From NCBI RefSeq assembly GCF_963506605.1, contig NC_083278.1, forward strand, positions 39,432,001-39,496,000: a stretch of DNA of 64,000 bases. Reading direction: 5' to 3'. A program made the position numbers and the translations under genes. Each line of letters opens with the position of its first letter. Position 1 is the stretch's first letter. Of the stretch, positions 6,031 to 56,100 are shown piece by piece. The notes under the pieces were generated by a model. That model was not told the origin of the DNA. It worked only from the letters and a program-made list of their open reading frames with translations, and searched no databases. This DNA comes from Zootoca vivipara (lineage: Eukaryota).

Positions 6031-6610
6031 CTGCAGGTCTAGGCTGAAGCTTAAAAGCAAGCTGGATTGATTAAATTTCTTTGAGTTTCTCTAACGTTGA
6101 GGAAGGGGGCCGACTTAGTTTCCACACCCGCTAATAATGTGGAAAATATGATTGGAAGAAGCTAAAATGCTTCTTCTCCAGTGTTAAACAAAACAAAAAC
6201 AGCATTCATCTCTTTAATGGAAGTCATTTTATTTCACGTGGCATTGGCCAATGCTACAATAGTGGAGCAGCCATTTAGTAACTGTGCAGTACTGTTTATG
6301 GAGGAAATAAACGTGGTTGTTTTTGTTTCTGGGATAAAGTATGCCTTCAGTTGCTGCTCTTTTACAGCAGGGGTTACTTCAACACTTGCTCTCCTTTGTC
6401 CTTCAACTTAGAGCATGGCAAAATGGCTTTCCAGTTTGTGAAAGTAGATCCAAGAGAAAGATAGCTTCCTCCTTCCTCCCCTCCTTCAGCTAGACTTTTA
6501 ATAAGAGTATAAAGCCTAATGTGTCCAAAATGGTTAGGATGATTTGTTAAATTTATATACTGTACTGCCTTTCATCAAGAGGCCACAGGGTGGTTAACAT
6601 AAAAAAAAAG

Positions 6611-6785
6611 AATAAAAAAATTCCTTCAGTAGCACCTTAAAGACTACATTTCACTGTATCTGAAGAAGTGTGCATGCACACGAAAGCTCATACCAAAATA
6701 AAAACTTAGTTGGTCTTTAAGGTGCTACTGAAGGAATTTTTTTATTTTACTTCGATCCAGACCAACACGGCTACCTACCTGTAAC
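6611..6785 (+). mobile_element. Short Penelope-like insertion (3' end plus inverted 3' fragment)
   Basis: About 6647-6785 matches the 3' end of the large element; 6611-6644 is an inverted copy of 6713-6746; duplication cataaaaaaaaag at 6598-6610 and 6786-6798. Confidence 0.9.
6656..6693 (+). ncRNA. Minimal type I hammerhead ribozyme motif
   Basis: Identical to 55874-55911. Confidence 0.85.
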
Positions 6786-53100: not shown

Positions 53101-56100
53101 AGGCCAGGAAACAGAGCCCTGCTAACTTAATGAAGCCCATTCAGTGGTATATTGATTTATCTATAAAAATATTTATATTCTGCTGTACTATAAAAAGGAA
53201 AACATCAAAGCAGTTTACATCAATAATAAATAAACCATACAATAAAAGTCATATAAAGAAGTTAAAAACAGACAACAATTTATAGCTGTAAAAAATAACA
53301 GACTACATTCAGCAGCACTTTTCAATGAAAAGGCTATATGTGTGAATAGTTCTTTTAAATGATAATTTTAAAAATCATACGGAAAAACCAGTTTAGGCTT
53401 GTTACCCTTAGTATGGTCATGGTTGTTGTTAGCAGCGATTTCTTCTTTGTTAGAACACACACTTTTCTTTGCCTTAAGGGATTTTTCCAGTGTTTTGTAC
53501 TTAGCCAGTGCCTTGCTGCGGGTTGCACTTGAAAAAGTTTTAGGAGCAACTACTTTAACTACACACAAACAGCCACAAGTGTACAGGTAATGGGTTAGGG
53601 ACCAAAAAAGAAAGGTAAATTTTGTTACCAAGCTGAAAAAAATGACTCAATATCTAGCTATTTTCACACTGCAGCTAGAACTGCACCGCAATTAGACAAC
53701 TCCTCTAAAACACCACCACACAGTTCTTTGGCTAAATTACACTTCCTTGAAGTACACACCAAACTATCTAGTTACAGGTAGGTAGCCGTGTTGGTCTGGA
53801 TCGAAGTAAAATAAAAAAATTCCTTCCTTCAGTAGCACCTTAAAGACCAACTAAGTTTTTATTTTGGTATGAGCTTTCGTGTGCATGCACACTTCTTCAG
53901 ATACAGTGAAATGGAAGTTTCCAGGCACTTATGTAGAGAAGGGGTGGGGAGGGGTGGGGATGGGGAGGGGGGATCACTCAGAAGGGTGGTGGAAATGGGT
54001 GATTGACTGACTGATAGCTGTTGATGACCGCAAACGACTGCAAATGGTTTTGCATGAAAAAGCAAGGGTTGAGATGGCTGAAGATCGCTTATCATGTATA
54101 ATGAGATAAGAACCCGATATCTCTGTTCAAACCAGGTCCCTCCATGGTTTTGAGCTTGGTGATAAGTTGCAATTCAGCAACTTCTCTTTCCAGTCTATTT
54201 CTGAAATTCTTTTGTAGTAAGACAGCTACTTTGAGATCTTGTATAGAATGTCCTGGGAGATTGAAGTGTTCTCCTACTGGTTTTTCTGTCTTCTGGTTCC
54301 TGATGTCAGATTTATGTCCATTTATCCTTTGGCGTAGGGTTTGGCCTGTTTGTCCAATATAGAGAGCTGAAGGGCACTGTTGGCATTTGATGGCATACAC
54401 AATGTTAGAGGATGAGCAATTAAATAGTCCTGAGATGGTATGTTGGATGGTATGTTGGATGGTTTGGTGATGACCTGTTCCTCCAGATCAGCGGCACAGC
54501 CATGGGCACCCGCATGGCCCCACAGTATGCCAACATCTTCATGGCAGATTTAGAACAACGTTTCCTTAACTCCTACCCACTCAAACCTCTCCTGTACCTG
54601 CGATACATTGACGATATTTTTATTATCTGGACACATGGACAACAGACCCTGGAAACCTTCCACCAGACATTCAATGACTTTCACCCCACCATCAACCTAA
54701 CAATGAACCAATCTATGCAAGAAATACATTTTTTGGACACTACTATAAAAATACAGGATGGACGTATAGACACCACCTTATACAGAAAACCAACTGACCG
54801 ACAAACATATCTACATGCTTCTAGCTACCATCCCAAACATACCAAACAATCCATCGTATACAGCCAGGCCTTACGTTACAACCGCATCTGTTCCAACTCT
54901 ACAGACAGAGAATCTCACCTAAGAGATCTACAGCAAACCTTTTTAGAACTAAAATATCCACCTGATGAAGTTAAACAACAGATCAACAGAGCCAGACTGA
55001 TACCTAGGGAGAACCTGCTGCAAGACAGACCCAAAAAAGAAAATAACAGAACACCACTAGTCATCACATACAGCTCCCAATTTAAAACAGTACAACGCAT
55101 CATCAGAGATCTACAGCCTCTCCTGGACAATGACAGCTCTCTTTCTCAAGCTCTAGGAGGAAGACCTTTCATTGCCTACAGACAGCCACCCAATCTTAAA
55201 CAACTCCTCACCCACAATAATACAACCACCAGACTTAACATGGACACTGGTACCAGAGCCTGCAATAAACCCAGATGCCAACTTTGCTGCCACATACACC
55301 CAGACAACACCATTACTGGCCCCAACAACATCCAACATACCATCTCAGGACTATTTAATTGCTCATCCTCTAACATTGTGTATGCCATCAAATGCCAACA
55401 GTGCCCTTCAGCTCTCTATATTGGACAAACAGGCCAAACCCTACGCCAAAGGATAAATGGACATAAATCTGACATCAGGAACCAGAAGACAGAAAAACCA
55501 GTAGGAGAACACTTCAATCTCCCAGGACATTCTATACAAGATCTCAAAGTAGCTGTCTTACTACAAAAGAATTTCAGAAATAGACTGGAAAGAGAAGTTG
55601 CTGAATTGCAACTTATCACCAAGCTCAAAACCATGGAGGGACCTGGTTTGAACAGAGATATCGGGTTCTTATCTCATTATACATGATAAGCGATCTTCAG
55701 CCATCTCAACCCTTGCTTTTTCATGCAAAACCATTTGCAGTCGTTTGCGGTCATCAACAGCTATCAGTCAGTCAATCACCCATTTCCACCACCCTTCTGA
55801 GTGATCCCCCCTCCCCATCCCCACCCCTCCCCACCCCTTCTCTACATAAGTGCCTGGAAACTTCCATTTCACTGTATCTGAAGAAGTGTGCATGCACACG
55901 AAAGCTCATACCAAAATAAAAACTTAGTTGGTCTTTAAGGTGCTACTGAAGGAAGGAATTTTTTTATTTTACCAAACTATCTATTTAATGCTTTACAAGA
56001 AATATTGCACATGCTCATGGAGTCAGAACGCTCAGGGTAAAAAACAAAACAAAACTGGTTTTCTCAAGCACTGTTTGCAGTGAAACTTAACTGTAAAAAT

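Follow-up and report, generated by a model that had tools for sequence, protein, structure and literature searches.

Three insertions of a Penelope-like retrotransposon lie within a 64,000-nt stretch of the Zootoca vivipara genome (contig NC_083278.1, positions 39,432,001 to 39,496,000; hereafter the window, in whose own numbering coordinates are given). Judged by their sequence, they are 5'-truncated copies of an endonuclease-bearing element of this kind and ordinary members of its family. Their layout is of a type already known: an inverted 3' piece is joined to a sense 3' piece, one arm runs to the full tail (the long end), and the other stops earlier (the short end). On re-examining the sequence, we found all three where a first-pass annotation had placed them.

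Insertion 1 begins with a left target duplication (6598..6615, plus strand), followed by a 34-bp inverted arm with the short end (6611..6644, minus strand) and a 141-nt sense arm with the long end (6645..6785, plus strand), and it is closed by the right duplication (6786..6803, plus strand). The sense arm contains a hammerhead-like minimal motif, which we judged by eye against the passages of PMC4209133 that describe it, as well as the T-rich short-start zone and the full tail. Insertion 2 is the smallest. Its 13-bp left duplication (11571..11583, plus strand) has the flanks AC..GT and lies within a copy of a short interspersed element (SINE); then come an inverted long end of 9 nt (11584..11592, minus strand), a 93-nt sense arm whose short end stops in the T-rich stretch (11593..11685, plus strand), and the right duplication (11686..11698, plus strand). 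An uninterrupted paralogous SINE copy (7560..7680, plus strand), in which the target 13-mer is present once, serves as an empty-site control. (This SINE family has been hit repeatedly: L079, one of the numbered loci from our genome-wide samples, ends at insertion 2's 13-mer in the opposite orientation, and L051 is located about 30 nt away.) Insertion 3 is the longest. Between 13-bp duplications (53758..53770 and 55971..55983, both plus strand) it has a 679-nt inverted arm with the long end and full tail (53771..54449, minus strand), a 13-nt spacer that repeats the long arm's inner end (54450..54462, no strand assigned), and a 1508-nt sense arm with the short end (54463..55970, plus strand). 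The sense arm covers the 3' half of an open reading frame (ORF), with reverse transcriptase (RT), CX4CX2C linker and GIY-YIG, and a tail-less 3' untranslated end; both arms contain a rare 4-nt duplication.

The insertions share microhomology with their targets to differing extents (long end/short end: 2/5 nt for insertion 1, 0/1 for insertion 2, and 0/2 for insertion 3). The annotation had described all three target duplications as 13 bp, which is right for insertions 2 and 3 (13, 13) and not for insertion 1, where the longest exact repeat is 18 bp and its final 5 nt also match the short arm. The uniform figure holds only if microhomology is subtracted for one insertion and kept for the other two.

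The ORF piece in the window, in insertion 3, matches both RVT_1 and GIY-YIG above the Pfam cut-offs. In loci L141, L168, and L169, the ORF is single, uninterrupted, and 901 aa long, with RT and, at the C-terminus, GIY-YIG, and its start codon lies 8 nt past the long end. The repeating unit is 3000 nt, on which we give all end positions, and L141, L142, L168, and L169 have partial tandem copies of it (pseudo-long terminal repeats, or pLTRs). A CX4CX2C motif in the linker precedes GIY-YIG, and it is by this motif that we assign the element to the Neptune/Nematis type. (The motif is given as a mark of Neptune and Nematis, not of Poseidon, in the relevant part of PMC8557442.) As the Penelope/Poseidon clade is recognized by a linker without the extra cysteine motif, the element is not a Poseidon. 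The closest named homologs are unannotated turtle proteins (61–73% identity), and a structure search found no solved structure of a relative. Upstream of the ends is a putative minimal hammerhead whose core, helix II, and 4-bp helix I were identified by eye and partly in the fold, and which fits the description in the part of PMC4209133 that deals with it. Searching Rfam returned no hammerhead family and no match at gathering level; below that level there were only hairpin look-alikes.

The family is large. In the 1.44-Gb genome, exact matches number 20,657 for a body 24-mer, 15,816 for a tail 24-mer, and 2,564 for the tail variant of the window's subfamily. These counts do not give a ratio of long to short ends because the end is common to several subfamilies that differ in their variants of it, so we used samples instead. 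Miniature inverted-repeat transposable elements (MITEs) and fold-back DNA transposons have matching terminal inverted repeats and move as a whole unit. We ruled out such an origin for the insertions because their termini always differ by the tail and their centres vary from copy to copy.

Sample U comprised 95 of the first 100 places of a body motif, plus L032, and sample Y comprised 60 of 61 clusters from places 13–100 of a motif specific to a subfamily and located upstream of the two end zones. Two further samples hold loci from a tail search (T) and a BLAST search (B). All loci of U, Y, and T lie in the first 62 Mb of contig 1. Our duplication finder gave 148 rows, plus 40 anchors without a duplication (some of these are cut-off or repeated loci). 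After 17 of the 148 rows were removed by hand (internal repeats, cut-off loci, repeated rows, and a microsatellite), 131 duplication-bounded copies remained.

Among these 131 copies, 85 are two-armed, and every one of the 85 pairs a long end with a short end; there are no long/long or short/short copies. The pairs are spread across the samples (34 from U, 31 from Y, 9 from T, 8 from B, and the 3 in the window). For U and Y together, which were not selected by tail, the count is 65/65 (binomial probability 5e-20 under free choice). Thus, the long/short pairing is beyond chance. Short ends fall in a zone at 2939–2967 and long ends in a zone at 2989–3010, with a mode at 3000. The long end exceeds the short end by 39.6 nt on average (range 26–58), in line with the 30–40-nt tail that endonuclease-bearing Penelope-like elements have at one end, and the positions of the two ends are uncorrelated (r = 0.04). 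The full tail can be on either arm, inverted or sense. A second batch of 39 loci chosen by tail gave 27 two-armed copies and no long/long pair (26 of the inverted arms end at 2946–2967 and one at 2915), and five additional long/short pairs were found among variant-selected loci, as judged by BLAST ends. As to the possibilities, raised by the annotation itself, that most copies are single-armed, that arm ends are randomly placed, or that like pairs are as common as unlike ones, the genome samples speak against all three: they have 0/85 like pairs, two narrow end zones, and a single-armed share of a third to a half rather than a majority.

More complex copies were also seen. L168 (8.8 kb) and L156 have several inversions inside one duplication, and their outer ends are still one long and one short. 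In L052 and L091, a partial inverted second copy lies beside the first.

Having two arms is not universal. All three copies in the window are two-armed, as the annotation had stated for each of them, but across the family single arms make up 46/131 duplication-bounded copies (24 long and 22 short) and, among young clusters for which a duplication was not required, 30/60, with inverted arms in the other 30/60. We looked for a trace of the missing arm in single-armed copies and found no clear signal (18 and 19 copies), except for one 10-nt match.

The target sites have a recognizable form. The duplication is 12–14 bp in 69/85 two-armed copies (mode 13) and in 100/131 of all duplication-bounded copies. 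In the primer-strand reading, GT abuts the duplication's outer edge on 45 and 34 of 122 sides, as compared to a background of 5.6%, and this weak motif is identical at both nicks. The distance from AC to GT is 12–13 in 22/35 sites and 10 in another 7. The flank motif resembles the long end, and we considered whether the RNA might guide the choice of target. We rejected this because the same motif is present at both nicks and neither side tracks its own RNA site any further.

Both ends also show microhomology between the target and the RNA. The mean is 1.68 nt at long ends (null 0.82) and 1.65 nt at short ends (null 0.84), where the null uses real target sites; the null maxima in 1500 runs were 1.32 and 1.40, and a swapped-site control gave 0.29 and 0.22. 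For ends anchored by the AC motif, the values are 1.36 vs. 0.42 (n = 25) and 1.10 vs. 0.47 (n = 29), unmatched in 3000 runs. So, the microhomology that the annotation had noted with the short end is indeed present there, but it is not confined to that end. The best fixed single position, with slack allowed for microhomology, accounts for at most 41/85 long ends and 25/85 short ends, and some long ends extend up to 10 nt beyond the motif. Start zones suit these data better than a cut site. Of 43 junctions at the centres of insertions, 23 show an overlap, 19 contain an insert, and 1 is blunt. Separately, an 8-bp stem (unit 2924–2931 with 2974–2981; window 6708–6766) has a pair probability of about 0.9 and encloses the short-start zone. 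It may position the two starts; the stem is unchanged in 67/70 long arms, so there is no covariation to test.

Sequence variants bear on whether the two arms have a common template. We compared minor source alleles between the arms of 46 young two-armed copies, which overlap over 15.1 kb in all, and found 21 concordant and 2 discordant sites. Outside of one homopolymer region there was 1 discordant site, as compared to 30.8 expected for random pairing. The 4-nt duplication of insertion 3 occurs five times in the genome, and four of these occurrences are both arms of two insertions, insertion 3 included. Genome-wide, three other shared variants are each present in 5–12 insertions. Shared variants might have been polymerase errors that were copied from one arm to the other, but we rejected this for the three that were tested because each recurs in 5–12 insertions, as source variants do. 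We also fetched 17 unpaired hits to rare variants, and none (0/17) had a second arm with the other allele. The allele patterns indicate that both arms are tied to one source locus.

The inner ends suggest a closer connection. In 6 of 21 pairs in which both arms extend beyond 2840, the inner ends are 15 nt apart or less, vs. 0.95 by permutation (p = 0.00025), and in all six of these near-coincident pairs it is the short arm that extends further. In L225, both arms begin at 1061. Overall, the short arm reaches further in 24 pairs and the long arm in 8. Long-arm starts in 2952–2976 number 7/65, as compared to 2 and 4 in two windows upstream, and in L146, L054, and L073 the long arm is near tail-only and begins within a few bases of the short arm's end. 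Such tail-only long arms abutting the short end would favour one RNA molecule, although this is suggestive only. Taken with the coupling of the inner ends, the use of the same RNA molecule for both arms seems favoured. An RNA start that is fixed by the source was considered as the cause of the near-equal inner ends and was rejected because the inner ends differ in the second copy that carries the L032 variant. The arms overlap by up to 1.9 kb.

Palindromic stubs of 200–250 bp are abundant, and both of their inner ends are near 2862–2890. Such ends would follow if priming took place, hypothetically, at the pLTR–ORF junction near the 5' end of the RNA. In query-unbiased samples, the 5' edge of hammerhead helix I is a hotspot for the inner ends of short copies (26/56 ends beyond 2800 are in 2862–2874; compare window 6645–6660 and 11593), and in several older subfamilies AG directly precedes this hotspot. 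In D. virilis, an intron ends at the point corresponding to the hotspot, according to the portion of PMC4209133 that covers it. The hotspot at 2862–2874 may be a transcription start, a splice site, or a polymerase stop. In three RNA runs (about 6/100 of each run's reads), reads were almost wholly on the stub region and hardly entered the ORF, and the start and end of the element's RNA were not seen. The reads in these runs (X20–X22) at L142:3890-4050 come mostly from stubs that lie within host transcripts, and they have a wide variety of loose ends at unit 2870–2871.

To explain the pairing, we propose that both nicked strands prime reverse transcription at two fixed sites on, most likely, one RNA; we consider this probable. 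A two-fold symmetric (dimeric) enzyme would nick both target strands 12–13 bp apart to leave two 3' overhangs. Of its two active sites, one would be placed at the U-rich proximal site on the RNA and one at the distal site, which immediately precedes the start codon, so that each freed 3' end would prime at its own fixed site on one RNA. The distal polymerase would then trail the proximal one and displace its complementary DNA (cDNA), and both polymerases would often halt at a common RNA end or break. The cDNA ends would be joined head to head, either by a short templated insert or by microhomology of 1–7 nt, and each cDNA would be the template for the other's second strand. If only one end were extended, the product would be a single-armed copy, long or short at similar frequency (24, 22). 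We infer the assignment of sites to strands, the single RNA, the displacement, and the reciprocal second-strand synthesis from the junctions. The first-pass annotation had already suggested that both nicked strands prime, at two positions on RNA, and this agrees with the symmetry of the nick motif, with the presence of microhomology at each end, and with the in vitro data for the anole. That annotation had left a choice between two positions on the RNA and two RNAs of a dimer; the coupled inner ends favour one RNA and make the two-RNA option less attractive. More speculatively, and at less than even odds, twin priming at two sites may be obligate in Penelope-like elements, with a symmetric dimer that nicks AC-N12/13-GT and loads two RTs 40 nt apart on one RNA, which then travel in file and finish each other's second strands. 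If so, the tail would be the footprint of the distance between active sites, and the head-to-head insertion would be the normal end product and not an accident.

One alternative, which we regard as unlikely, is that the two nicks prime on two RNAs of one source locus, with an asymmetric dimer giving one a distal start and the other a proximal one. Fully overlapping arms would then arise without strand displacement, rare discordant sites would be permitted, and the shared source variants would come as no surprise with a single active locus per cell or with a protein that binds its own mRNA; also, the anole protein is predicted to form a dimer, according to the part of PMC11167929 that models it. 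But two RNAs leave the scattered coinciding inner ends (6/21 vs. 0.95; L225) unexplained, as well as the tail-only long arms that abut the short end, and an extra rule is needed to forbid long/long and short/short pairs. Near-equal inner ends and identical arms are just what would be seen if one cDNA snapped back and was copied into the second arm, while the other nick gave only the tail or a microhomology join. Such a fold-back could also account for the stubs whose centres lie on the self-complementary helix II (L235, L239, and L244) and for the centre overlap in 23/43 junctions. It seems quite unlikely all the same, because fold-back of a tailed cDNA cannot place the tail on the shorter-reaching arm, which is the commoner case (24 vs. 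8), and if a tail-less cDNA folds back, then a tail arises only by distal-site priming from the second nick, and this amounts to two-site priming once more. Furthermore, genome-wide testing of three shared variants showed them to be source variants rather than copied polymerase errors, and unpaired centres extend over more than 2 kb.

The ideas already published would form the palindrome by antisense self-priming (as put forward in the relevant section of PMC3846280) and would have the tail left behind when the endonuclease cuts a DNA intermediate to resolve it (likewise in PMC8557442). The long end on the other strand does resemble the nick motif, and the D. virilis endonuclease is cited in PMC11167929, in the passage at hand, as requiring the tail for recognition. 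We find these ideas very doubtful for this element because its ends are zones (at most 41/85 long and 25/85 short ends at one position) with long ends up to 10 nt beyond the motif, because there is target microhomology at both ends, and because, for the anole element, the starts obtained in vitro from sense RNA coincide with the ends in the genome, as stated in the same part of PMC11167929. It is barely credible that the pairing was produced artificially by the way in which copies were sampled or assembled, or by separate insertions that lay side by side and later recombined. Such an explanation could draw on the fact that the unbiased samples are from the first 62 Mb of one contig, that the main count required a duplication, and that palindromes are prone to misassembly. 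However, both arms are enclosed by one duplication and have rare variants in common, the motifs used to pick the two main samples lie upstream of both end zones, the pattern recurs at loci on other contigs, and the paralogous SINE shows the empty site.

Several observations weigh against priming at two fixed sites on one RNA, or against the strictness of the pairing. According to the anole study, there was no difference in start site between the strands in vitro, and the start was not homologous to the cut DNA (PMC11167929). Microhomology is zero at 26/85 long and 18/85 short ends. One of the two allele discordances, at L129 and L200, is clear (the other is in the homopolymer region). The rare variants that we tested are variants of the source lineage and would therefore be common to two RNAs of one locus as well, and coinciding inner ends are also expected from fold-back. 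Near-equal pairs account for most of the short arm's lead, which is 13 vs. 7 in pairs that are more than 50 nt apart. Overlapping cDNAs on one RNA require strand displacement, which we assume for this enzyme. As for the pairing, the inverted arm that stops at 2915 in the second batch (L241) is outside the usual short zone, and the second copy in L091 looks short/short (it has no duplication and repeats its neighbour's flank inverted). Finally, the count leaves aside the 40 anchors without a duplication and the 17 rows that were removed by hand as false or repeated calls.

Twin priming is familiar from L1 elements, for which it was reportedly described by Ostertag and Kazazian in 2001. There, the first primer is extended from the poly(A) tail and the second from a variable internal site, the two pieces do not overlap, and there is microhomology between the 3' end of the target and the RNA at the priming site. 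The process that we propose would be similar in that both nicked strands prime on one RNA, with microhomology for the second primer, and leave head-to-head cDNAs inside one duplication. In contrast, both sites here are fixed, internal, and 40 nt apart, the arms overlap by up to 1.9 kb, and few tail-only arms abut.

Among Penelope-like elements, Pen2a_Av of Adineta vaga has the same class of layout, with inverted arms (inverted pLTRs) and a tail at one end. In the account of it in PMC3846280, the tail is optionally on one inverted pLTR, duplications are 8–10 bp, and antisense self-priming is proposed. In the Zootoca element, the pairing is strict (85/85), either arm may carry the tail, duplications measure 12–14 bp, and the arms are tied to one source, whereas the rotifer has duplications of 8–10 bp and a tail that is called optional, at least in that account. 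The scheme in Fig. 2 of PMC8557442 and the text around it have the tail often at one end only, which is ascribed to endonuclease resolution, and the mechanism is called undefined.

The closest experimental system is Poseidon of Anolis carolinensis (PAc), whose target-primed reverse transcription was studied in vitro. As set out in the sections of PMC11167929 used here, both strands are nicked and extended, two internal start sites bracket the tail, and the protein is predicted to be a dimer. PAc is like the Zootoca element in that its start sites are near the pLTR–ORF junction with a hammerhead upstream, and the preference of PAc for cutting at ATT (same sections) is akin to the GT/AT motif that we see. 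Unlike PAc, the Zootoca element has the CX4CX2C linker, and its start codon is 8 nt past the long end rather than in helix II, where those sections place the start of the PAc ORF. Also, they assign no site to each strand of one insertion and report no homology with the cut DNA, whereas we find an excess of 1–2 nt.

Thus, from the portions of these papers that we draw on, the one-sided tail is already published (PMC3846280 and PMC8557442), as are the predicted dimer, the use of two start sites, and the fact that both strands are extended (PMC11167929). A bioRxiv preprint (10.64898/2026.07.22.740005) and PMC4209133 also belong to the literature on what is known. Full-text literature searches did not find strict long/short pairing or twin priming for Penelope elements; older Penelope papers (Arkhipova, 2006; Evgen'ev and Arkhipova, 2005; Pyatkov, 2004) and Fig. 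S2 of PMC11167929 may bear on it. What is new here is the strict pairing, the weak GT motif at both nicks 12–13 bp apart, and the arms with the same source variants and often coinciding inner ends. The formation of inverted ends and the completion of the second strand in Penelope-like elements, which are the sister group of telomerase, are stated as open in passages of PMC8557442 and PMC11167929. A strict rule, a two-fold symmetric target, and arms from one template would turn the loose "optional tail" into a precise prediction that is testable in the anole in vitro system.

We also noticed other repeats. L027–L031 (598-bp period) and L163 (263-bp period) are head-to-tail arrays of the pLTR, the tail, and the first 64–78 nt of the unit, without the ORF; from their sequence, these look like hammerhead-bearing non-autonomous repeats. 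Within the window, other repeat families have inverted arms and are MITE-like (6830–7024, 13679–13919, 30021–30444, and 48412–48643; 23389–24355; and 1176–1325 and 14417–14566), and they are separate from the Penelope insertions.

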